Shown here: positions 16,800 through 34,607 of the stretch, in pieces | Layout: every line of letters starts with the position of its first letter | How positions within the stretch are numbered: position 1 is the stretch's first letter | Position numbers and translations under genes: made by a program | The notes under the pieces: generated by a model | Told to the model about the DNA's origin: nothing | The model's input: the letters and a program-made list of their open reading frames with translations, nothing else | Database searches by the model: none | IMG/VR virus record: IMGVR_UViG_2706796076_000001 | Direction: 5' to 3' (one strand) | Source of the DNA: a virus | Taxonomy: Duplodnaviria > Heunggongvirae > Uroviricota > Caudoviricetes > Herelleviridae | DNA length: 64,000 nucleotides

Positions 16800-17063
16800 A
16801 TGATGATAAAAGAAGAGAATATTATTCTACTTAGAAACCCAGACGACCATGTTAAAGTAAAAAGACTTATGGAAAATAAAGAAGAGTTTGTAGCTGTTAA
16901 GTTTGATACAGTTTCAGTAGCTACTGTTAATGTGCAAAGTCAAATGAACGCAATACAAAACTATCTAAATATTTATGGTTATAGAGTACTAGAATATGGT
17001 AAAGATAATTTAGGACTAGATAAAGAATCAAAAGGATATTTATATGCTAGAATGGAGTGGTAA
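16800..17063 (+). CDS. hypothetical protein (87 aa)
   Basis: SD GAGAGGTG. Confidence 0.5.
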   Translation: MMIKEENIILLRNPDDHVKVKRLMENKEEFVAVKFDTVSVATVNVQSQMNAIQNYLNIYGYRVLEYGKDNLGLDKESKGYLYARMEW

Positions 17064-17806
17064 GAGTGTATATTTTTATTAACCCTTTAATACTTGAGAA
17101 GAATATAGTAGATAAGTTTTTCAAAGAAAATATTCAAGGTATTAGTAAGATAAAGTATGAAACAGACATAAATCGTGTTTCTTTTGAAAGTGTAGAAGAT
17201 GAAGATGTTATTTTTGTAGGTTATATTTATAAAAATATAGATACTCAATACTTAAAAGGTAGTATCTATTATGTAAGTAACATAGGGTTATTACCTGATA
17301 ATTTTATTACTGTAACTAAAGAAGAACAGCATTTAAGCCTGTTAAAACAACTTATGATTTTATTAGATATAAAAGATGATAAGTGGTTAAGTATAGCTAG
17401 AGATTTTACTAACTATTTTAACTTTATTAACTTAGAAGAAATAAATTACACACAAGTAGAAAAAGAACTTAATATAGATGAAGTTTATATTTCAATGATG
17501 TTAGATAGGGTTGTTGATGGTGGTAATAATTTCTTTTTCTTAAACGAGAATGATGTTATCTATAAATATGTATTAGCTCATAGAATTTTAAGGAAAAGAA
17601 ATACAGGTGTGGTTGTTATAACATCTCAAACACGGTCAAATAGTGACTTAATAACATTTCATTGTAAAAATGTTGATAAAAATTACTTGACAAAAGTGTT
17701 TGATACACGTTATAATGATAAGACAAATGTGTTTAGTTTATTTATACCTAGTTCAGTCAATCGACTAGCAAAAAATACAATGAAATTTATTAAAGAAGGG
17801 AATTAA
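17057..17806 (+). CDS. hypothetical protein (249 aa; GTG start, overlaps upstream stop)
   Basis: Long ORF in the operon; start uncertain. Confidence 0.45.
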   Translation: MVRVYIFINPLILEKNIVDKFFKENIQGISKIKYETDINRVSFESVEDEDVIFVGYIYKNIDTQYLKGSIYYVSNIGLLPDNFITVTKEEQHLSLLKQLMILLDIKDDKWLSIARDFTNYFNFINLEEINYTQVEKELNIDEVYISMMLDRVVDGGNNFFFLNENDVIYKYVLAHRILRKRNTGVVVITSQTRSNSDLITFHCKNVDKNYLTKVFDTRYNDKTNVFSLFIPSSVNRLAKNTMKFIKEGN

Positions 17807-17808
17807 TT

Positions 17809-19074
17809 ATGACAGAAAGTAGATTTAATACAGTAGAAGAGTTATATGCTATTATTATCGGAGTTCTAGGAAAAGAAGAAGGTAAAATAGTTTTAACTAA
17901 ATTTAATAAAATTATTAAAGAATTAGGATTAGACAAAGTAAATTCTTCAGAATTTGTTGATATTGTAGATACAGTTAGAGAGAATGAGTATTTAAACAGT
18001 CTTAAAAATTCAGCTTTATCTGGAGAACTTGGTTTAGGTGACTTAAGAAGTGTAGATGATAGAAAAGTATTTACAGGTAATGATTACTTTAAAACTGTTT
18101 CAACATATGTTACTGAGAATGAACGCACACTATCACAACAAAGAGAATTTCGTAAGTATGCTAAACAAGGTGCACATATTAATATCTTAATGGAAGATTT
18201 AAAGAAATCTATAATTAGAGATTTACAACCTATAAATACATTATTAGAAAGTCAGTTTTATAATTATGTAAATACAGAAAAAGAAAAATCAATGGTAGTT
18301 TTACTGTCAGATTTTCATATTGGTGCTTTGACATCTGATTATACTAATGGTGGTTACGACTTTAATATACTAAAACGTAGACTTAACCAATTTTTAGAGA
18401 CAGTTATTGAAGATATTGAAAGTAAAGATATTACAGATGTTACAGTATACTTTGTAGGTGATTTAGTAGAACATATATCTATGAGAGATGTTAACCAAGC
18501 ATTTGAGACAGAATTTACTTTAGCTGAACAAATTTCTAAAGGAACTAGATTAATTATAGATATTTTAAATAATATTAGACAATATGTACCAGGTAAATTA
18601 ACATTTGGTATTATTGGTGGTAATCATGACCGTATGCAAGGTAATAAAAATCAAAAAGTTTATAATGATAATGTAGCGTTTGTAGTACTAGATATGCTAC
18701 TTATGTTAAAACAACAAGGTGTATTAAAAGATATTGAGCTTATTGATAATAGGGAAGATATTTATAATATTAGAGATACAATTTTAGGTAAAAAAATTGT
18801 AGTTAATCATGGTGATGGACTTAAAGGAAAAGGTAATCATATTCCTAAATTTATTACAGATTCACATATTGATTTGCTTATTACAGGACATGTACATCAT
18901 CATAGAATAACACAAGAAGATTATAACAGATTTCATATTGTTGCCAGCTCTCCAATGGGCTATAATAACTATGCTAAAGAATTACACTTAAGTAAGACAA
19001 AACCTTCTCAACAAATATTAGTGTTAGAAGAGGGGACTAAGAATATAGACATTAAAACAGTGTTCTTAGATTAG
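17809..19074 (+). CDS. calcineurin-like metallophosphoesterase (Mre11/SbcD-like nuclease candidate) with ~150-aa N-terminal extension
   Basis: Motifs DFHIG, VGDLVEH, GGNHDRM, VVNHGDG and ITGHVHHH are present. Confidence 0.6.
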   Translation: MTESRFNTVEELYAIIIGVLGKEEGKIVLTKFNKIIKELGLDKVNSSEFVDIVDTVRENEYLNSLKNSALSGELGLGDLRSVDDRKVFTGNDYFKTVSTYVTENERTLSQQREFRKYAKQGAHINILMEDLKKSIIRDLQPINTLLESQFYNYVNTEKEKSMVVLLSDFHIGALTSDYTNGGYDFNILKRRLNQFLETVIEDIESKDITDVTVYFVGDLVEHISMRDVNQAFETEFTLAEQISKGTRLIIDILNNIRQYVPGKLTFGIIGGNHDRMQGNKNQKVYNDNVAFVVLDMLLMLKQQGVLKDIELIDNREDIYNIRDTILGKKIVVNHGDGLKGKGNHIPKFITDSHIDLLITGHVHHHRITQEDYNRFHIVASSPMGYNNYAKELHLSKTKPSQQILVLEEGTKNIDIKTVFLD

Positions 19075-19086
19075 GAGTGATTAATT

Positions 19087-19425
19087 TTGAATTATGTTTT
19101 ATCTATACTAATATCTACTATGATATTAGTTACAATAAATACAGTCGCTACTTTATTTCAACAATGGTCGGTTGAAAAAGAAAGAGTAAAAGCTGGCTAT
19201 CCAGCTTTTAATAACTTTGATTATTACTATCCGTTACTTAATTGGTTACTTGGTTTTATGTTTTTATTAGTAATTAGCTTTTTTTCTGATAATTTTATTC
19301 AACCTACTAATATTTGGTTCTTAATACTATATTGTGTTATATTTATAGTAGGATACCTTATTGTAGGATTAATTACTACCTTGATTATGTCTTTTATTCA
19401 AGCTAAGTTAATTAAGAAAAAGTAG
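19087..19425 (+). CDS. membrane protein (TTG start, 3 TM)
   Basis: Hydrophobic segments. SD AGGAGTGA. Confidence 0.45.
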   Translation: MNYVLSILISTMILVTINTVATLFQQWSVEKERVKAGYPAFNNFDYYYPLLNWLLGFMFLLVISFFSDNFIQPTNIWFLILYCVIFIVGYLIVGLITTLIMSFIQAKLIKKK

Positions 19426-19489
19426 AGGCATATTTGCTTCTACTTTAATTATATGGTATAATAAAAAGAAAAGAAGGAACTGATGAAGA

Positions 19490-20029
19490 ATGGATTTTAA
19501 TTTTAGTGCATTTGATAGTCCATCAATAAAAATGAGGGTAAGTATAGGAGCTTATTATTTTGATGGTAAACCTGTCTATATAGTAGAACATATAGAAGAA
19601 GATTTATCAGAATATGTTATTGTATATAATGTACATGATGTTAATAATATAGATAATCCAGTTAAAAAATATAGAATTGAAGAATATAGAAAAACAATAC
19701 CTGGAGGAACAACAATTAGTAATATTATTAAAAGCAGATTACCTAAGAAAGTTACACCTAAGAAAGTAGAAGAAGAACCTATATTCATAGCTACTGTGAT
19801 TCCGTTAGGCAGAGATACAGTAACAGGTGAGACTGGAAAAGGTTTCTTTGAAAGACAACCAGATAATAAAAAAATGACACAAAAAGATGGTATAGTTGTT
19901 GAGCATGGTAAGTATACAGGTGTTTTTATTGGTTTATCTAACATTAAATGGTTTAATTCATATACACCTTTAGAAAGTGTAATAGAATATTATAAAAAAA
20001 CGAAAGAGGATAGATTAAATGTCTTCTGA
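19490..20029 (+). CDS. hypothetical protein (179 aa)
   Basis: Preceded by a TGgTATAAT extended -10 at ~19452 and a GAAGGAA SD. Confidence 0.5.
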   Translation: MDFNFSAFDSPSIKMRVSIGAYYFDGKPVYIVEHIEEDLSEYVIVYNVHDVNNIDNPVKKYRIEEYRKTIPGGTTISNIIKSRLPKKVTPKKVEEEPIFIATVIPLGRDTVTGETGKGFFERQPDNKKMTQKDGIVVEHGKYTGVFIGLSNIKWFNSYTPLESVIEYYKKTKEDRLNVF

Positions 20030-20768
20030 AGCTAGATTTTATGAAAAAGATATAAAAGACCTAATAAAAACTAAACAGCACCTTTTTTATGATGATGATA
20101 TTATAAGTGATGTTAAGGATATTGCTATATTCAATGAAAAAGTAATTTGTCAAGGTAAATGTAGAACTGATTGCCTAGTATTAGATAGAAACGGTACTGT
20201 AATGGGTATCGAGATAAAAACAGAGAGGGATTCTACACAACGACTTAATAAACAACTACACTATTATAGTCAAGTATGTAAATACGTATATGTTATGTGT
20301 CATGATAAGCATGTACTTAAAGTAGAACAAATATTAAAACGATATAAACATCACCATGTAGGTATTATAAGCTATATAAATGTTAAAGGTAAACCTATTG
20401 TAGGTAAATATAAAAAGGCAACTATATCACCTCATAGAAGTCCTTATCATACACTTAATATTCTATGGAAACATAACTTATTAATAATGTTAAAACAAAT
20501 AAGAGACCCTTTTACTTTCCGTTCAGGGTATAACTATAATAAGAATGGTAGATACACAGGAGGAGCAGGTAACTTCTCTCAAACAACACAATCTAAAAGA
20601 ATGAAAAAATTCTCAGTTATTAATCAAATAATAAAATACTTAGGAGAAGAAAATACCTATAAATTATTTACAAGGGTAGTTATTTATGGTTATAATGATA
20701 GATGGAAAGTTATTGAAGAAGACTTCTTTAATGTAGTAAAAAATGGAGTTGAATCTATACGTGAATAA
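20019..20768 (+). CDS. hypothetical protein, possible PD-(D/E)xK nuclease fold
   Basis: LVLDRNGTVMGIEIKTERD has D..E.K spacing. Confidence 0.3.
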   Translation: MSSEARFYEKDIKDLIKTKQHLFYDDDIISDVKDIAIFNEKVICQGKCRTDCLVLDRNGTVMGIEIKTERDSTQRLNKQLHYYSQVCKYVYVMCHDKHVLKVEQILKRYKHHHVGIISYINVKGKPIVGKYKKATISPHRSPYHTLNILWKHNLLIMLKQIRDPFTFRSGYNYNKNGRYTGGAGNFSQTTQSKRMKKFSVINQIIKYLGEENTYKLFTRVVIYGYNDRWKVIEEDFFNVVKNGVESIRE

Positions 20769-20787
20769 AAGAAGAAAAGCAAAACTT

Positions 20788-21174
20788 ATGCCAGTTAACT
20801 TTGCACCCACACCATCACCAGGGAATACAAAGTTTTACAATCATAGAGACCCTAACAAAGATAAATCAACAACTATGTACAAATTACTATTTACTAAACA
20901 GTTTAATAATATATCTTCAACTGATGTTAAATTACAAAAAAAATATGGTATTGATTTAATTAGTAAAGCTATTGGTGTGAATGAAAATATGTTAAGTTTA
21001 AAACAGAAATATAAAAACCAAGAAATAACACATACTGACAGGCTTTATTATGTTCATAAAGGCGGTTTACTAATAGGAAAACTAAGTATTAGAGAGCAGA
21101 GAACATTTAAAAGTACACATCTAATTTTTATATTTAAAATTAGAAAACAAACAAATAAAAGGAAGGGTTATTAA
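20788..21174 (+). CDS. hypothetical protein (start uncertain; ORF open from 20743)
   Basis: ORF in the operon. Confidence 0.4.
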   Translation: MPVNFAPTPSPGNTKFYNHRDPNKDKSTTMYKLLFTKQFNNISSTDVKLQKKYGIDLISKAIGVNENMLSLKQKYKNQEITHTDRLYYVHKGGLLIGKLSIREQRTFKSTHLIFIFKIRKQTNKRKGY

Positions 21175-27290: not shown

Positions 27291-27614
27291 ATGAATAATG
27301 AAAAATTATCAGTATTAAAAGAATCAGAGTTAAGTATTTTAAATAGTATTGTTAAATTGTTAGAATCTTTTGATGTAGGTTCATTACGACTACTCAAAGA
27401 TAATAACGAATTTGTAATTAAAATTAATGGAGATACGGTATTAGAAACAGATAACGGACTAGTAAAACAACATTTTACTAAATTAAATATTAAAGTTACT
27501 GAAAGAATTGCACTATCTAGAATTAGTGACACATTGCAATTTACTTTAAGTGAGATTTATAACTTAGAAGATACAATGTTTAAAGAAGCACAAAACGTAG
27601 TGGATGAAGTGTAG
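27291..27614 (+). CDS. hypothetical protein (107 aa)
   Basis: Last gene of a coupled operon; its stop lies inside the terminator hairpin. Confidence 0.5.
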   Translation: MNNEKLSVLKESELSILNSIVKLLESFDVGSLRLLKDNNEFVIKINGDTVLETDNGLVKQHFTKLNIKVTERIALSRISDTLQFTLSEIYNLEDTMFKEAQNVVDEV

Positions 27615-27638
27615 TATAAAACTACACTTCTTTTTTTA
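27607..27638 (+). terminator. rho-independent terminator
   Basis: GAAGTGTAGT-ATAAA-ACTACACTTC followed by T7. Confidence 0.8.
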
Positions 27639-27647
27639 TAAAAAGTA

Positions 27648-27676
27648 TTGACATCTAATATAAATTATAGTATCAT
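27648..27676 (+). promoter_or_regulatory. sigma70-like promoter
   Basis: TTGACA, a 17-nt spacer, then TATCAT. Confidence 0.5.
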
Positions 27677-28267: not shown

Positions 28268-28320
28268 TTACTTGACAAAAAAGTTATTATAGTTTATAGT
28301 TAAGTTAAAGGAGGTATATT

Positions 28321-28681: not shown

Positions 28682-28909
28682 ATGAATAATATGGAAAATT
28701 TTAAAGAAGAAAAACAATATAAAGTCACAGTAGCTCTAAAAAGTGGGAAATATATGGATATTAATGTTTCAATTGAAGAGAGAGATAGTCTTATTAAGTT
28801 GTTAAAAAACTGTGACGCTGATACATTTTCACTATTTTTTGCAAGTAATTCAACAGAAGACGATGTTTGGGTACCTTTAAACAGTATAGAATTTATTAGT
28901 ATTAAATAA
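28682..28909 (+). CDS. hypothetical protein (~75 aa)
   Basis: SD AAAGGAGA before ATG 28682. Confidence 0.45.
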   Translation: MNNMENFKEEKQYKVTVALKSGKYMDINVSIEERDSLIKLLKNCDADTFSLFFASNSTEDDVWVPLNSIEFISIK

Positions 28910-28926
28910 TAAAAGGAGAGGTAATT

Positions 28927-31263
28927 ATGAAACAATTATTATTAATGAGAGGTGTACCAGGTGTAGGTAAATCTACTTTTATTAAAGAGAAAGGACTAGA
29001 AAATTACACATTAAGTCCAGACACTTTAAGATTACAATTCGGTTCACCTATCTATAATGAAGAAGGTAGAATAGCGATTACTCAAGATAAAGATAATCTA
29101 GTTTGGAAAACACTATTTGAAATTTTAGAAAATCGTATGAGTAATGGTGAATTTACTGTAATTGATGCTACACACTCTACAGGTAAGTTAATTAAACGAT
29201 ATGAGAAGTTAGCTAAAGTATACGGTTATCGTGTTTATGTAGTAACCTTAGAAGAAGACTTAGATACATTAATTGAACGTAATAACCAAAGGGAAAAATT
29301 AAAACAAGTTCCTGTAGAAGTTATTGAGAATATTTATGAAAGACTACAACATGAACATATTCCTAGTGTTGCAAAAGAATTAAAACCTGAAGAAGTATTA
29401 AGTTCTCTTGAGTGGGATAAAGATTTTATGGAAGTAAGTAATTATGATAAAATTCATGTTATCGGTGATGTACATTCTTGTTTCACAGCTTTAAATGAAT
29501 TTGCTAGTTATAACTACATTGTAGACCACCCTAATGAATTATTTATTTTTGTAGGAGATTATTTTGATAGAGGCTTAGAACCTAAAGAAACTTTTGATTA
29601 TTTAGAACTTATCCATAACTTAGATAATGTAGAATTATTAGAAGGTAATCATGAAAGACATTTACGTAGGTATGCTCACTTAGATACAGATACGTATGAA
29701 GAGCTTCATAAAGTGAGTGATGACTTTAGTAAGTTATTTAAATTAGTCTTAGATGTATTTAAAGCTAGAGGTTTTGTTTACACGTTAAAATCTTTCCTTG
29801 ATAATGGTATTACACCTAAACGAGTACGTGCTATTTTAAGAAACTTACAACAAGTTCTATACTTTAATTATAGAGGACAATACTATGTTATTAATCATGG
29901 TGGTATCTTACCTAATATGTTAGATAATTTAAATAAAGTATCAACACATCAACTTATTAATGGTGTAGGTAGTTATGAATTTGATGTAGACAGTAAATGG
30001 AAAGATAGTTCAGTTATTCAGATTCACGGTCATAGAAATTTATATCGTGAACGTTTAGATTTAACAAAAAATTCTATTAATCTAGAAGGTAGAGTCGAAA
30101 AAGGTGGTTACTTAAGAGCAGTAACGATTAACAGTAATAATAGTATCGACCCTGTATTAATTAAAAATGAAAAATTTAATCATAAGTTCTTAGTTAATGA
30201 AGACTATTTAAAATCAATTGATAAAGATTTAACAGTAGATAAATATTTAAATTTAGCTAAAGAAGAGAAAAAATCTATCAAAGTCATTGAACAGTACAAT
30301 TATGTAGTATCTGTTAACTTTACTAAAAAAGCATTTGATAAAAAAAGATGGAACCAATTAACAGTAAGTGCTAGAGGATTATTTATTGATACTCTAGTAA
30401 ATAAAATTTTAGGTAGAGGTTATAATAAATTTTTCAATATTAATGAAAGACCTGAGACAAAATTAGATGCATTACCTGATATTATTAAATTTCCGTTATA
30501 TGGTTATAAAAAAGAGAATGGTTATTTAGGTTTAGTTTACTTTGATTCTAACATTGATGATTTAGTCTTTTGTAGTAAATCAAAAACACATTTAAGTAAG
30601 CATAATAATGATTATGCTCTATGGTTTAAAGATTTATTTGATAAGCAGTTTGATGATATTCAAGTAGAAACAATCGTTAAGTATCTTAAAGAACATGATA
30701 GAACTTTAGTGTTTGAAGTTATTGATATTGAAAACGACCCACATATCATTGAATATGATAAAAGTCATATCGTTTTATTAGATATTATTCATAATACTTT
30801 AGAATTCAAAAAAGAAAGTTATTCCAATACTTATACATTTGCTTTATCTATTGGAGTACCTTTTAAATCATGGTCTCTTATGTTCGATACTTGGGTAGAG
30901 TTTTATGATTGGTATAAGAATAATCATAACTCTTTAGATATTAAACATGAAGGATATGTATTTGAAGATTCAAATGGTTTTATGTTTAAGTATAAATCTA
31001 AGTACTATAATGACTGGAAATACATGAGAGGTATCGTAGAAAGCTTAGCTAAAGGTAATGATAGACGACCTATTCAAAGAATTTTACAAGAAAACGAAAG
31101 TTTAAGAGCTTTTTATTACTGGGTTCGTGATTATTCTAATTTAACTAGAAAAGAACTTAAGAATACAGATATTATCACTTTAAGAAAAATGCAAGAAGAA
31201 TTTGCAAAAAATGAAACAGGAAGAACTCATAATGAAATAAATCAAGTTTGGAGAGATAGTTAA
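28927..31263 (+). CDS. Pnkp-like trifunctional RNA repair enzyme: P-loop polynucleotide 5'-kinase + calcineurin-like phosphoesterase + ligase-like nucleotidyltransferase
   Basis: The N-terminus MRGVPGVGKST (Walker A) resembles T4 Pnk GCPGSGKST. The middle domain has GDVHSCF, FVGDYFDRG and EGNHERH (PPP-family motifs). The C-terminal domain has YGYKKENGY (motif I, KxNG), HEGYVFEDSNGF (motif IV) and MFKYKSKYY (motif V, KxK) in ligase order and spacing. Confidence 0.65.
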   Translation: MKQLLLMRGVPGVGKSTFIKEKGLENYTLSPDTLRLQFGSPIYNEEGRIAITQDKDNLVWKTLFEILENRMSNGEFTVIDATHSTGKLIKRYEKLAKVYGYRVYVVTLEEDLDTLIERNNQREKLKQVPVEVIENIYERLQHEHIPSVAKELKPEEVLSSLEWDKDFMEVSNYDKIHVIGDVHSCFTALNEFASYNYIVDHPNELFIFVGDYFDRGLEPKETFDYLELIHNLDNVELLEGNHERHLRRYAHLDTDTYEELHKVSDDFSKLFKLVLDVFKARGFVYTLKSFLDNGITPKRVRAILRNLQQVLYFNYRGQYYVINHGGILPNMLDNLNKVSTHQLINGVGSYEFDVDSKWKDSSVIQIHGHRNLYRERLDLTKNSINLEGRVEKGGYLRAVTINSNNSIDPVLIKNEKFNHKFLVNEDYLKSIDKDLTVDKYLNLAKEEKKSIKVIEQYNYVVSVNFTKKAFDKKRWNQLTVSARGLFIDTLVNKILGRGYNKFFNINERPETKLDALPDIIKFPLYGYKKENGYLGLVYFDSNIDDLVFCSKSKTHLSKHNNDYALWFKDLFDKQFDDIQVETIVKYLKEHDRTLVFEVIDIENDPHIIEYDKSHIVLLDIIHNTLEFKKESYSNTYTFALSIGVPFKSWSLMFDTWVEFYDWYKNNHNSLDIKHEGYVFEDSNGFMFKYKSKYYNDWKYMRGIVESLAKGNDRRPIQRILQENESLRAFYYWVRDYSNLTRKELKNTDIITLRKMQEEFAKNETGRTHNEINQVWRDS

Positions 31264-31331
31264 TGTTAACACCTGAACAAAAAGATAAACTTAAACAAGA
31301 ATAGTTAAAGAGAAGAAAGTAGGTTAGGTAT

Positions 31332-31604
31332 ATGGCTTGGTTACTATTAGTTGCTTTAATTTTTGTAGTAATCATACTAGGTATAATTATTGGAGCAACT
31401 AAGCTATTTGAGTATGTAAGGAAAGAAATAGAGAAAAGAGAAATTAATAAGAGATTAAAAATGGTTGACTATGAGATTGAATTAAAAAACCATGAAAAAG
31501 AAGCATTAGAATCATCAACATTGAGTGTATCTCAAATTAAAGAACTTGAAGAAGAAATATCAGAGTTAAAAAAACTTCATAAAGATATTAAAAAAGGAGA
31601 ATGA
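31332..31604 (+). CDS. small membrane protein with coiled-coil tail (possible partner of the SPFH protein)
   Basis: N-terminal TM LLLVALIFVVIILGIIIG, then a charged helix. Its stop overlaps the SPFH gene SD. Confidence 0.45.
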   Translation: MAWLLLVALIFVVIILGIIIGATKLFEYVRKEIEKREINKRLKMVDYEIELKNHEKEALESSTLSVSQIKELEEEISELKKLHKDIKKGE

Positions 31605-31606
31605 TT

Positions 31607-32413
31607 ATGGAAAGTAAAGTAAAAGCAGGTTTAGGATTAACTATAGGCGGTATTATTATTGTTGTAGCAATTATAATTGCGTTTCTAAGTATTGAAAGAG
31701 TACCGCAAGGAACAGTAGGTGTTGTATACTCACCTAAAGGTGTTAAGGATAATACTCTAAGTCCTGGCTGGCACTTAGTAGCACCTATGAACAGAGTAAA
31801 TGAATATCCTACAAGAACACAAACTATCAGCTACAAAGATATGAATGTATCAACGTCAGATGGTAAAAACCTTAATTTAGATATTGATGTAAACTATAAA
31901 GTTGATAGCTCAAAAGCAGTTGAATTATTTAATCGTTTTGGTAGTGCAGATATTGAACAGCTAGAAAAAGGTTATTTACGTTCAAGAGTACAAGATAACG
32001 TACGTCAATCTGTTTCTAAATACTCAGTAATTGATGCTTTCGGTGTTAAAACAAGTGAAATTAAAAAATCTACTTTAGATAAACTTGAAGAAAATCTTAA
32101 AGGTCAAGGTTTTATTGTTGAAGATATTGCTTTAAGTTCTCCAAAAGCAGATAAAAATACTCAAAAAGCAATTGACAGTCGTGTTAAAGCAAATCAAGAA
32201 TTAGAGAGAAAGAAAGTTGACAAACAAATTGCTAAAGAAGAAGCTGAACGTAAAGAAATTGAAGCAAAAGGTACTAAGAAAGCAAATGAAATTGTAGAAG
32301 AATCATTAACAGATGAGTTACTACAAAAACAACTTATTGAAAAATGGAAAGGTGATACACCTATCACATTACCAGATTCAGGAAATGCTATATTAGATAT
32401 GAGACATAAATAA
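31607..32413 (+). CDS. SPFH/band-7 (prohibitin/stomatin-like) membrane protein
   Basis: N-terminal TM, then a typical SPFH core (GTVGVVYSPKG...LSPGWHLVAPMNRVNEYPTRTQT...) and a C-terminal coiled coil rich in E/K/A. GGAGA sits 6 nt before ATG 31607. Confidence 0.65.
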   Translation: MESKVKAGLGLTIGGIIIVVAIIIAFLSIERVPQGTVGVVYSPKGVKDNTLSPGWHLVAPMNRVNEYPTRTQTISYKDMNVSTSDGKNLNLDIDVNYKVDSSKAVELFNRFGSADIEQLEKGYLRSRVQDNVRQSVSKYSVIDAFGVKTSEIKKSTLDKLEENLKGQGFIVEDIALSSPKADKNTQKAIDSRVKANQELERKKVDKQIAKEEAERKEIEAKGTKKANEIVEESLTDELLQKQLIEKWKGDTPITLPDSGNAILDMRHK

Positions 32414-32464
32414 TATAGATAAAGAACCGATTGTTAATCTAAAATAGTATTAAAATTTTTTACT

Positions 32465-32493
32465 GACCCCTATTGACAGGGGTCTTTTTTTTA
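32465..32493 (+). terminator. rho-independent terminator with -35 box embedded in loop
   Basis: GACCCCT-ATTGAC-AGGGGTC followed by T8. The loop TTGACA, an 18-nt spacer and TATAGT form a promoter for gene 32532. Confidence 0.75.
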
Positions 32494-32531
32494 TGTTATA
32501 GTTTATATATAATAAATAAGGAGGAGTAAAA

Positions 32532-32720
32532 GTGATAGGTTTTATTATTTTAGCAAGTGTATTAGCTTTATTTTACTTAGCTATTTGTTTTAGTGTTTTA
32601 GTAGAAGTAATTAAACTATTTAAAGATGGAAATAAAGAAGAAGCCATACCTCTATTAATAATGTTAATTATGGTAGTGCTTATCTTAGTAAGCCTTATCT
32701 TAATAGCATTAGGTATATAG
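32532..32720 (+). CDS. 62-aa double-TM membrane peptide (GTG start)
   Basis: SD AAGGAGGAG. Very hydrophobic. Confidence 0.45.
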   Translation: MIGFIILASVLALFYLAICFSVLVEVIKLFKDGNKEEAIPLLIMLIMVVLILVSLILIALGI

Positions 32721-32734
32721 AAAGGAGTTATATA

Positions 32735-32911
32735 ATGGAAAGTGAAGAGCAATTAAAGGAGTATGTGAATTCTTTAGAAAGAATTATTACTGATGTAGAG
32801 TACTTAAAATTAGACACTAATGGTCTTATCAATACTGTATGTTTAAATAAAGCATTAGAAGAGCTAAACAAAGTAAAACGTTCTTACAAATACCATTTAG
32901 AAAATTTATAA
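32735..32911 (+). CDS. hypothetical 58-aa protein (below ORF-track cutoff)
   Basis: SD GAAAGGAG 8 nt before ATG. Reads MESEEQLKEYVNSLERI... Confidence 0.4.
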   Translation: MESEEQLKEYVNSLERIITDVEYLKLDTNGLINTVCLNKALEELNKVKRSYKYHLENL

Positions 32912-32926
32912 AGGAGAAAATAAAAC

Positions 32927-33436
32927 ATGTATTTAAATGATTACGTAGGAAAATTTATAAAAAGTAACAATATTAATGGGTACCAATCCACAAATCTAGT
33001 ATCTAATTATGTAAAACGATTAACTTTAAATAAATATACAACTAAGTTAAATGCTAGTAGAATGAAATACGAGAAATTACCTAATTCTTGGAAAATCATT
33101 AAGTCCAAAGAATTATTAAAAACTGACGATTATAGAGAAGGGGATATATTTGTATCAGAAAAAATATCTATATTTGGATTCAATGGTATCATTGTTTACA
33201 ACCATAATTTTGATAACGTAGCTGTTATTACTCAAAATAGAGATGGTAAAGGAAATAAACCCGTAGAAAAACACCTCTTTCCAAAGAAACAAATTGATTA
33301 TATTGTTAGACCTTGTAAACGAGATTATGAAGAACATTTTAAAAAATCAAGTATACAAGAAAAAGTAACTATTTCTAAACAAGAATATAATAAACTATTA
33401 GATGCTTATAACAAAATGAAAGATGTATTTTCATAA
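32927..33436 (+). CDS. hypothetical protein (169 aa)
   Basis: SD AAAGGAGAAAA. Confidence 0.5.
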   Translation: MYLNDYVGKFIKSNNINGYQSTNLVSNYVKRLTLNKYTTKLNASRMKYEKLPNSWKIIKSKELLKTDDYREGDIFVSEKISIFGFNGIIVYNHNFDNVAVITQNRDGKGNKPVEKHLFPKKQIDYIVRPCKRDYEEHFKKSSIQEKVTISKQEYNKLLDAYNKMKDVFS

Positions 33437-33489
33437 AAAATAAAAGGAGAAGATACTAATGAAAATAATTACAAAGGAGTGTATAAATA

Positions 33490-34599
33490 ATGAAAATTGT
33501 ATTAGGTATGATGATAGTTTTCGTAGTTTTTTTAGTTATTTTTAGTGTAATTTTTGCATTTCTCGAGTCTAAACCAGAACCAACAATAAAGAAAAAAGAT
33601 GATATGTTCCTATTTTCCAAGTATGATATTGCTAAAAGTTTAGTAAATAAAATCAAAGAAGATTTGGACTTTGATTTAGTAGAAGTTAGTGACTACTCTA
33701 AGTATAGTCTTGAACGTACACGTAAATACGGACATGAAAATTTTAAATTTTTACTAAAACTAGATTGTTCGTATAAAAATCCTAGTTTAAATCTAGAAAT
33801 TTATAATAGCTTAAACAAAAAAGTTTTATCTTATTTTTTAATGAGTATTTATGATTTGGATTATACTTTAGATGGTTATAAAGCACATAAAGCATTAAGT
33901 TCTATTTTTAAAGAAATAAACTATAATATAACTTCTGTAGAGAATAAAATCAAAAGTTTTCAAAAAATTAAAGAAATAGTTAAACCATATATTATAGAAA
34001 GTCAGAGTATTAATGTAGAATTGAAATATAATAATATACCTTTAATTATAGGATTAGTTCCTGATAGAGAACAAAAAATAAATGAAATAATATTATCTTC
34101 TAAAGGGAATTTTAGAGATGTTAAAGAAGCTATATGTATTCCTAGTTTTACTACTCGTGATTTAAAATATGTATTTGTTACTGAAAATAATGTATTAGAA
34201 ACTATTAAATCTTATACAAATGACTTATTATATGATTTATCTGATTTCCAAGATGCTTTTGATAGTATTACAAAAATACCTATTAATGGTTATATCTTAC
34301 AAGAAACAAGTATTAGATATTATGAAAGTCACGCAATATCATTTAACTATGTTAAAGGCAGAAATACTTATAGATTCTTTGTTAAACCTTTTGATAGAAC
34401 ATACACGTATCAAAAGAATAATCTAGATGAAAGAAAAGGTTATTTTGTAGGTTTTAAAGACTTAATGAGTAAAATAAAGTTTGAACTTGATAAAAGTAAA
34501 AACATTGTTCCATTTGATGTCGAAGATAAACCTGAGTTAGTATATAATACAGCAAAAGGTATATTAGAAACTAAAGATAATATTGAATATATTGAATAA
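33490..34599 (+). CDS. hypothetical membrane-anchored protein (369 aa)
   Basis: N-terminal TM. SD AAGGAGTG. Confidence 0.5.
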   Translation: MKIVLGMMIVFVVFLVIFSVIFAFLESKPEPTIKKKDDMFLFSKYDIAKSLVNKIKEDLDFDLVEVSDYSKYSLERTRKYGHENFKFLLKLDCSYKNPSLNLEIYNSLNKKVLSYFLMSIYDLDYTLDGYKAHKALSSIFKEINYNITSVENKIKSFQKIKEIVKPYIIESQSINVELKYNNIPLIIGLVPDREQKINEIILSSKGNFRDVKEAICIPSFTTRDLKYVFVTENNVLETIKSYTNDLLYDLSDFQDAFDSITKIPINGYILQETSIRYYESHAISFNYVKGRNTYRFFVKPFDRTYTYQKNNLDERKGYFVGFKDLMSKIKFELDKSKNIVPFDVEDKPELVYNTAKGILETKDNIEYIE

Positions 34600-34607
34600 A
34601 TTATAAA

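Follow-up and report, generated by a model that had tools for sequence, protein, structure and literature searches.

The window analysed here, the whole stretch of 64,000 nucleotides (nt) from the virus record IMGVR_UViG_2706796076_000001, contains at 31332-32413 on the plus strand a pair of genes that encode a small membrane protein, called the partner below, and a protein of the SPFH/Band-7 family. The pair was found to recur as a conserved two-gene cassette in staphylococcal phages, in prophage-like elements, and in Macrococcus chromosomes, and its SPFH protein, whose nearest relatives of solved structure are the prohibitins, is predicted to lie outside the cytoplasmic membrane. Positions 28900-34600 of the window match Staphylococcus phage vB_SepM_phiIPLA-C1C (Herelleviridae, Twortvirinae, Sepunavirus) at 100% identity; for SEP1, Twillingate, Quidividi, and further Sepunavirus genomes, the identity is 98-99%. 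These phages are strictly virulent myoviruses. The two genes and their junction are as follows.

31332..31604, plus strand: partner gene (gp103 in phiIPLA-C1C and SEP1; orthologue of Kayvirus mbpV), an open reading frame (ORF) of 90 amino acids (aa), phrog_22697
31607..32413, plus strand: SPFH/prohibitin-family gene (gp104; orthologue of Kayvirus mbpS and phage K ORF28), 268 aa, PF01145, phrog_200
31593..31609, plus strand: gene junction, read from the sequence, with an AAAGGAG ribosome-binding site, the partner stop codon TGA at 31602-31604, and the alternative SPFH starts ATG 31601 and ATG 31607

SPFH protein

The larger protein belongs to the SPFH/Band-7 family, and prohibitins are nearest to it among solved structures by both sequence and fold. 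The first-pass annotation had described an N-terminal transmembrane (TM) segment, an SPFH core, and a coiled coil rich in E, K, and A, and had named profile search and structure prediction as checks; both gave SPFH, and the description held throughout. Pfam Band_7 (PF01145) was matched with 116.1 bits against a cutoff of 23.6 (E=2.4e-33; residues 33-215, profile positions 2-174 of 176), and phrog_200 was matched at E=1.4e-84. The AlphaFold2 model, calculated for the monomer with 35 homologues (predicted local distance difference test score, pLDDT, 82.6), consists of a TM helix (2-28), an alpha/beta SPFH body (29-181), a 51-residue helix (183-233) in which E, K, and A together make up 53% of the residues, a short helix (236-245), and a flexible tail; the motif EKWxGxxP lies in the C-terminal tail. 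A search of the PDB sequences with the family profile placed prohibitin-1 (9.4e-24) and prohibitin-2 (3e-21) at the top, followed by the erlins (~1e-13 to 2e-13), HflC (3e-11), HflK (~1e-7), and stomatin (3e-7). Foldseek, used with the AlphaFold2 model, returned 63 PDB matches at E<=1e-3, of which the matches listed were SPFH or major-vault-protein structures; human prohibitin 8rrh_A ranked highest (E=1e-16), and ranks 1-4 were all PHB1/2.

Two database labels for this protein were rejected. The name 'HflC membrane protease regulator', carried by three GenBank records, is over-specific, as the NCBIfam HflC equivalog (TIGR01932) gave 27.9 bits against a cutoff of 134.4. The name 'lipoprotein', used in RefSeq and PHROG, is ruled out because the protein contains no cysteine. 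That name does suit other phrog_200 members, including those of Erwinia Rouille (LTAC) and crAss cr85 (VTSC); in the homologues from Erwinia, crAss-like, and Burkholderia phages, a signal peptide and a lipobox Cys are followed directly by the conserved domain start K-V-x-x-G-x-V-G-V. The SEP1 gene and the bacterial orthologues are named 'prohibitin family protein' in RefSeq.

The junction of the two genes reads AAAGGAG-A-ATG-A-TT-ATG, and the partner TGA overlaps the first ATG (31601), from which the long form of the SPFH ORF (31601-32413, 270 aa) would be read. More probably, translation starts at ATG 31607 (268 aa), a correction of 6 nt that is favoured by the position of GGAG (31596-31599) 7 nt 5' of this ATG, by the deposited records, in which it is the annotated start, and by alignment with the orthologues, that of Sextaecvirus starting at the equivalent residue. 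Because the two genes are separated by only 2 nt (ATG 31607) or overlap by 4 nt (ATG 31601), and the SPFH ribosome-binding site falls within the last codons of the partner, the arrangement fits translational coupling.

Partner protein

Profile comparisons indicate that the partner is a member of a real, conserved, and tiny orphan family. Its hydrophobic segment starts at residue 4 (Kyte-Doolittle 3.38; TM ~3-24) and is followed by a helix of ~65 residues with a tail that is 48% charged and has a conserved E-L-x-x-L...I..GE motif at its end. AlphaFold2 modelled the 90-aa protein as a single continuous helix (2-87, pLDDT 83) with no strands. The match to phrog_22697, which is placed by PHROGs in the category 'moron, auxiliary metabolic gene and host takeover', extended over the full length (E=3e-41). 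The RefSeq version of the partner starts at M44 and has 47 aa; it is probably wrong because the conserved TM segment is thereby omitted.

A tblastn search with the 90-aa protein matched 20 records, all from Sepunavirus, and a single-sequence search of a large database returned near-identical proteins only; the homology to MbpV and to Macrococcus proteins surfaced only with profiles. A profile for which only the chromosomal Macrococcus/Phocicoccus partners served as input ranked every phage partner above all of 1,862 decoy ORFs (prophage-type partners 1e-22, MbpV 1e-7, window ORF 2.4e-4, first decoy 0.21), and the reciprocal profile, made from phage partners, matched the chromosomal ones at 1e-13 to 1e-19. 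The family is small, with 27 clusters found by profile search among 5.8 billion proteins, and an exhaustive HMMER scan of 1.84 billion proteins yielded 23 representatives, all full-length (70-123 aa), unnamed, and of one architecture.

The first-pass annotation had pointed out that the small gene stands where bacterial SPFH genes usually have NfeD partners. This applies to position, the gene being located where many bacterial SPFH operons have NfeD, and does not extend to homology: Pfam gave no match of the partner to NfeD (PF01957) at E<=0.01, and the model is all-helical without a beta-barrel, so that an NfeD homologue was discarded as a candidate. Lacking both the NfeD signature and beta structure, the partner is, on the predicted model, a positional analogue of NfeD and not a homologue. 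Identification as a holin was likewise disfavoured on family matches, expression timing, and gene location: no holin family was matched in Pfam or PHROGs, expression is early or middle as opposed to the late expression of the holin, and the Macrococcus orthologues occupy a housekeeping locus. With the PADLOC defence models, the SPFH protein went unmatched, and the partner reached only 17 bits, a score that was taken as chance.

Conservation of the pairing

Loci were retrieved with a narrow SPFH alignment, a divergent one being too variable for this purpose, and 31 loci were surveyed by script. An ORF of 90-110 aa with a TM segment and a helix, ending -50 to +16 nt from the SPFH start, was present at 29 of these loci, a count that includes Bacillus phage B4, whose TM version is only 44 aa long; the Enterococcus phage locus had none. 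A 30th locus with a partner (M. bovicus) was recovered by profile search, for a total of ~30/31. The first-pass claim of a small upstream membrane protein coupled to the SPFH gene is thus borne out, both by adjacency or overlap of the genes and by profile homology across lineages. The pair occurs in Sepunavirus, Kayvirus, Sextaecvirus, jumbo phage SA1, prophage-like elements of ~120 kb, Macrococcus, and Phocicoccus. In Kayvirus, mbpV overlaps mbpS by 1 nt within the order holA-lysK-mbpV-mbpS-orf-tgl, and the partner equivalents have 91 aa in the unrelated 88-kb Sextaecvirus siphovirus and 89 aa in jumbo phage SA1. More distant Firmicute-phage contigs encode shorter proteins with an N-terminal TM segment (44-95 aa) at the partner position, and unrelated small membrane ORFs are located there at 2 of 3 loci of Gram-negative phages.

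No conserved third gene was found: Kayvirus ORF27, the PQ-loop protein of the prophage-like elements, and the 169-aa ORF of the window are mutually dissimilar and also unlike Tgl. Because each lineage has different flanks and a common third gene is lacking, gene order identifies the two-gene cassette as the mobile unit. The PQ-loop protein, a 201-aa membrane protein, is encoded directly 3' of the pair (overlap or 2-nt gap) in the large prophage-like elements of S. pseudintermedius and S. gallinarum (L008, 8783-9388; L044, 6801-7406) and is absent from Sepunavirus and Kayvirus; it is a possible lineage-specific third component.

Synteny of the pair, in the order greA-pnp-yqeG-partner-SPFH-yqeH, was seen in 12 of 13 species representatives of Macrococcus/Macrococcoides, where from its sequence context it is a chromosomal operon inherited vertically. 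None of the Staphylococcus species-representative genomes matched the family patterns, and the non-phage copies in Staphylococcus were found only in the large prophage-like elements (S. pseudintermedius, S. gallinarum), which carry genes for DNA polymerase III alpha, ligase, ribonucleotide reductase, and Sipho_Gp157. The cassette may be native to Macrococcus chromosomes and have been captured by staphylococcal phages, whose hosts are without it.

Relative to locus L011, one M. equipercicus strain (L012, CP073809, 1-6011) has a phage- or satellite-like element (HTH_36, DnaB-like, Encapsidation_CP3) in place of yqeG directly 5' of the pair, and apparently the same replacement of yqeG by such an element is present in M. 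bovicus (L024). The partner-SPFH locus in Macrococcus may be an integration hotspot.

Spread among phages and earlier descriptions

Phage-encoded SPFH proteins had been called rare in the first-pass annotation, a view that had to be abandoned. By tblastn, the SPFH subfamily was detected in 547 of 50,697 phage records, with one match per record, in phages of at least 10 host genera; the family constitutes PHROG 200, and SPFH ORFs of phages have been in print since 2006. Among the hosts, Staphylococcus (275 records) was followed by Bacillus (54), Enterococcus (53), Erwinia (29), and Burkholderia (29), and further carriers infect Streptococcus, Prevotella (Lak megaphages), Pseudomonas, Fusobacterium, and others. 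All Twort-like staphylococcal phages carry an SPFH homologue, and temperate or prophage carriers include phiE125, Javan, and the S. pseudintermedius and S. gallinarum elements.

For T4-like phages, SPFH ORFs already appeared in a 2006 listing, and reports of them also exist for a satellite prophage of Pseudomonas and a prophage of Pasteurella. Kayvirus MbpV/MbpS were described in 2020 by Glowacka-Rutkowska et al. (PMC7150955), who noted the SPFH domain and a 'TM plus charged tail' partner, proposed that MbpS aids Sec export of the Tgl transglycosylase, and remarked that MbpV resembles holins. The pair is therefore already known, the Kayvirus version being in print and the Sepunavirus gene being annotated as 'prohibitin family protein' or 'HflC'. 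Literature searches found no functional study of any phage SPFH protein, and the transcriptome paper on jumbo phage SA1 is silent on the SPFH copy of that phage.

Two records with copies of the pair appear to be artefacts. The 89,664-bp contig CAAFUL010000045.1, from an 'uncultured Johnsonella sp.' metagenome-assembled genome (L013), carries a pair of the Sextaecvirus type (88% identity) and is about as long as a complete Sextaecvirus genome; most likely it is a staphylococcal phage contig that was mis-binned. IMGVR_UViG_3300006456_000001 (226,865 bp; L030, L033) combines a Sepunavirus-type copy (100%) with one of the Sextaecvirus type (88%) and has the look of a chimera in which two phage genomes, of ~140 kb and 88 kb, were joined.

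Membrane topology

By prediction, the SPFH domain is on the outer side of the cytoplasmic membrane, the placement known from HflK/C, prohibitin, and erlin. The flank N-terminal to the TM segment was more positive than the flank that follows it in 112 of 128 SPFH family members, and the Macrococcus orthologues have 5-8 K/R in the N-terminal flank; the outward prediction was made on the basis of these positive-inside charges and of the lipobox-bearing relatives. Because the lipobox Cys stands directly before the SPFH domain, the members from phages of Gram-negative hosts are read as exported lipoproteins. Flotillins and stomatin/QmcA face the cytoplasm; the bulk of prohibitin is on the non-cytoplasmic side.

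Sequence divergence and constraint

Divergence was evaluated by comparing phiIPLA-C1C (140-kb myovirus) with Sextaecvirus S-CoN_Ph16 (88-kb siphovirus; L004). Within SPFH residues 29-230, 41 synonymous codon differences were counted versus 2 that change the amino acid; changed residues amounted to 17/28 in the TM segment, 11/34 in the C-terminal tail, and 57/90 in the partner. The SPFH core (window 31672-32331) is ~92% identical in DNA and ~99% in protein, the flanking TM segment, tail, and partner are only 50-60% identical, and the terminator/promoter block at 32452-32511, whose signals are listed below, is 88% identical. To judge by this comparison, the extramembrane core of the SPFH protein is under very strong purifying constraint, and its near-identity in the two phages suggests either that it was exchanged recently or that the constraint on it is extreme. 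The TM segment, tail, and partner, which diverge together, are candidates for interaction surfaces; recombination breakpoints could yield the same pattern.

Expression and transcription signals

Published SEP1 RNA-seq data (mean RPKM, a read count scaled to gene length in kilobases and to millions of reads mapped, in exponential cells) gave the following values at 5, 15, and 30 min.

RNA ligase: 7,804 / 11,546 / 681
Partner: 1,120 / 14,708 / 877
SPFH gene: 693 / 24,899 / 1,473
Next gene 3' of the SPFH gene: 5,505 / 2,108 / 142
Holin: 823 / 2,021 / 6,231

At 5 min, the SEP1 pair was 7- to 11-fold below the RNA ligase gene located directly 5', and by 15 min it had risen 13- to 36-fold; the unit is of the middle class, is induced sharply, and ranks with the most abundant transcripts at 15 min. 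Unit TU15 of Kayvirus 515A1, made up of mbpV-mbpS, has an early sigma-70 promoter and is among the five most abundantly transcribed units; normalised reads between 5 and 30 min were ~17,000-21,000 for mbpS and went from ~50 to ~5,000 for holA. The pair behaves as a late lysis gene in neither SEP1 nor Kayvirus, and the published RNA-seq argues against a lysis-specific role.

Transcription signals located by scanning the window are listed below.

27606-27630: terminator before the two upstream promoters
27648-27676, plus strand: sigma-70-type promoter (TTGACA-17-TATCAT)
28272-28300, plus strand: sigma-70-type promoter (TTGACA-17-TATAGT)
32465..32492, plus strand: strong intrinsic terminator closing the unit of the pair (32465-32484 and a T-run)
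TTGACA at 32473 to TATAGT ending at 32502, plus strand: sigma-70-type promoter of the next unit, overlapping the terminator

The terminator and promoter 3' of the SPFH gene are also annotated in Twillingate and SEP1. For the unit comprising the pair and the RNA-repair gene, the promoters at 27648 and 28272 are the nearest recognisable ones on the 5' side, and the scan detected neither a sigma-70 consensus promoter nor a terminator in the 68-nt spacer at 31264-31331. The Kayvirus late motif TGTTATATTA was not present near the pair, and its matches across the window were at chance level. Since the RNA-seq data imply separate middle-phase induction of the SEP1 pair, yet the spacer contains no such signal, a middle promoter of unrecognised type or an antitermination site is implied.

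The same spacer contains a tiny ORF (31264-31305, plus strand) that encodes MLTPEQKDKLKQE before its stop codon and starts at an ATG overlapping the RNA-ligase stop (TAATG). In SEP1 and Twillingate, a TAG-to-CAG difference lengthens it to 19 aa. It is probably not a gene, and it is located where middle-phase regulation occurs.

Neighbouring genes

Several small membrane proteins are encoded around the pair in Sepunavirus. T4 splits Pnk and Rnl1 into separate proteins. The 778-aa protein at 28927-31263 (plus strand), labelled 'RNA ligase' or 'polynucleotide kinase', contains three enzyme domains in one chain according to Pfam, namely an AAA_33 kinase (4-138), a calcineurin-like metallophosphatase (175-377), and a T4 Rnl1-type RNA ligase (482-693), and by this domain content is a complete Pnkp-like RNA-repair enzyme.

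The 169-aa protein at 32927-33436 (plus strand) is labelled 'endolysin' in RefSeq and phrog_4855. The label looks unsupported because no Pfam domain was found and no similarity to Kayvirus Tgl or ORF27 was detected. The equivalent gene of SEP1 is early (RPKM 9,886/4,673/277 at 5/15/30 min), unlike a lysis gene.

Proposed function and alternatives

Every SPFH protein of solved structure assembles into ring or cage oligomers around a patch of membrane, and the two nearest families of the predicted topology, prohibitin and HflK/C, enclose FtsH-type AAA proteases. By analogy, the phage SPFH protein, held by one N-terminal TM anchor with its SPFH domain and coiled coil on the outer face of the cytoplasmic membrane, would assemble into a homo-oligomer, ring- or dome-shaped, by which part of the host membrane is fenced off. 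The helical partner, translated from the same mRNA, would co-assemble through its TM segment and membrane-proximal region, and the pair would be produced in bulk early to mid infection. The resulting cage would enclose or regulate a host membrane client, for which the FtsH protease is the leading candidate because prohibitin and HflK/C corral FtsH-type proteases and share the predicted topology. The domain identity, the conservation of the pairing, the predicted topology, the timing of expression, and the purifying selection rest on data given here or published; the formation of a cage, the physical contact between partner and SPFH protein, and the identity of the client are what we infer. The cage-plus-client model as a whole is accordingly put forward tentatively, at somewhat under even confidence, and clearly less confidence is placed in FtsH as the client, which is the most plausible idea by analogy.

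Several points weigh against this model. The erlins, which are the second-closest family, do not regulate FtsH, the NCBIfam HflC score is far below its cutoff, and the SPFH genes of Enterococcus and Listeria phages are without a partner. The SPFH family is also found in phages of Gram-negative hosts that have HflK/C, so that the supply of a missing HflK/C cannot be the general explanation. In addition, the flank charges of the partner are inconsistent between lineages, which makes its orientation ambiguous, and its long helix may be on the side of the membrane opposite the SPFH domain.

A different role in the envelope, judged unlikely though a serious rival, would have the abundant outward SPFH assembly and its partner shield or stiffen the membrane from early or mid infection on, blocking DNA entry by a secondary phage or lysis from without, or buffering premature membrane damage, with no protease regulation involved. 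The predicted extracytoplasmic location and the lipoprotein versions in Gram-negative phages would suit such a role. Exported or lipoprotein exclusion proteins are known, T5 Llp and Streptococcus Ltp among them, and the resemblance to proteins of this type counts in the same direction, as do the very high early or middle expression, which is suited to a stoichiometric structural role, the occurrence of the family in temperate phages and prophage-like elements too, and the PHROGs category of the partner. However, an exclusion phenotype is nowhere reported, the PADLOC models give no match, and the operon at a core housekeeping locus of Macrococcus speaks for a cell-autonomous membrane function older than any phage-specific role. 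It is more improbable still that the pair helps with lysis timing or secretion, the partner being holin- or antiholin-like and the SPFH scaffold organising the lysis or Sec-dependent export machinery. This explanation draws on the Kayvirus gene order, on the TM segment and charged tail that MbpV has in common with small holins, on the proposal of MbpS-Tgl Sec export (PMC7150955), and on the small membrane proteins around the pair in Sepunavirus. The linkage to lysis genes, however, is specific to Kayvirus, other flanks differing and sharing no third gene; the pair is expressed early or middle whereas holin and endolysin are late; the chromosomal orthologues, flanked by yqeG and yqeH, are not in phage surroundings; and the partner matches no holin family.

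That the upstream ORF is no functional partner at all, merely an unrelated phage membrane micro-protein that happens to stand 5', is scarcely credible. It would agree with the restriction of tblastn matches to 20 Sepunavirus records, with the near-identical proteins returned by the single-sequence search, and with the partnerless Enterococcus and Listeria phage genes. It is largely refuted by the profile homology to the Macrococcus partners, well apart from the 1,862 decoys, and by the adjacency or overlap at ~30/31 loci across unrelated genomic backgrounds, and it disagrees with the matching SEP1 expression profiles of both genes, and with the single architecture of the 23 full-length family members.

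A broader reading, which is rather doubtful at present, is that the pair represents a distinct and unnamed two-component class of outward SPFH systems, in which a prohibitin-like scaffold has a partner that is a single helix and not NfeD. Such a class would have its home in Macrococcus and would have been taken up repeatedly by phages of Staphylococcus, since that genus is without it, and it would have a specific, selectable task during infection such as the caging of FtsH or the blocking of secondary infection on the outer face of the membrane. If true, no phage SPFH system would have been functionally defined before it, and it would give access to the role of phrog_200 in hundreds of phages. 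The phage SPFH proteins of phrog_200 are among the larger phage protein families, very highly expressed, and strongly constrained; SEP1 and K-like phages are candidates for phage therapy, which makes an abundant membrane-remodelling module worth understanding. The present analysis adds a defined partner family shared with Macrococcus chromosomes, a predicted outward topology, a link to expression, and a testable two-gene unit, and it corrects annotations, in that the SPFH protein is neither a 'lipoprotein' nor 'HflC' and the partner has a different true start. It overturns nothing and would not surprise a specialist.

Comparison with known systems

The closest system is Kayvirus MbpV/MbpS, in which MbpS is 72-74% identical to the SPFH protein of the window and MbpV is of the same partner family. 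The Kayvirus partner is longer (102 aa versus 90 aa, ~26% identity), and the pair is located beside holA/lysK/tgl, whereas in Sepunavirus it follows an RNA-repair gene. The Kayvirus pair is also transcribed from an early sigma-70 promoter of its own, at a constantly high level, unlike the Sepunavirus pair, which peaks sharply in mid-infection.

SPFH-NfeD operons (E. coli QmcA-YbbJ, 8z5g; B. subtilis FloT-YuaF) likewise have a small membrane-protein gene directly 5' of the SPFH gene and co-transcribed with it, and the two products would be expected to relate as partner and scaffold. NfeD, however, consists of TM segments and a C-terminal beta-barrel, whereas the phage partner is a predicted single long helix, and the SPFH proteins of these operons face the cytoplasm, whereas that of the window is predicted to face outward; QmcA was only at rank 29 in the Foldseek search with the window SPFH model. 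HflK/HflC-FtsH is similar in the SPFH fold, the N-terminal TM segment, the periplasmic-type topology (predicted for the phage protein), and membership in a cage-forming family. It differs in that the phage has no HflK paralogue, the neighbour being a 90-aa helix, in that the phage coiled coil is much shorter, and in that TIGR01932 is below its cutoff.

Prohibitin PHB1/PHB2 (8rrh, 9o9z) has the same arrangement of N-terminal TM anchor, SPFH domain, coiled coil, and C-terminal tail, and the predicted orientation of the window protein is also the same, with the bulk non-cytoplasmic. Identity is ~20%, and the phage differs in having a single SPFH gene together with a dedicated small helical partner. 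Because there is one SPFH gene per phage genome, a homo-oligomer would be expected rather than a heterodimer of the PHB1/PHB2 type.

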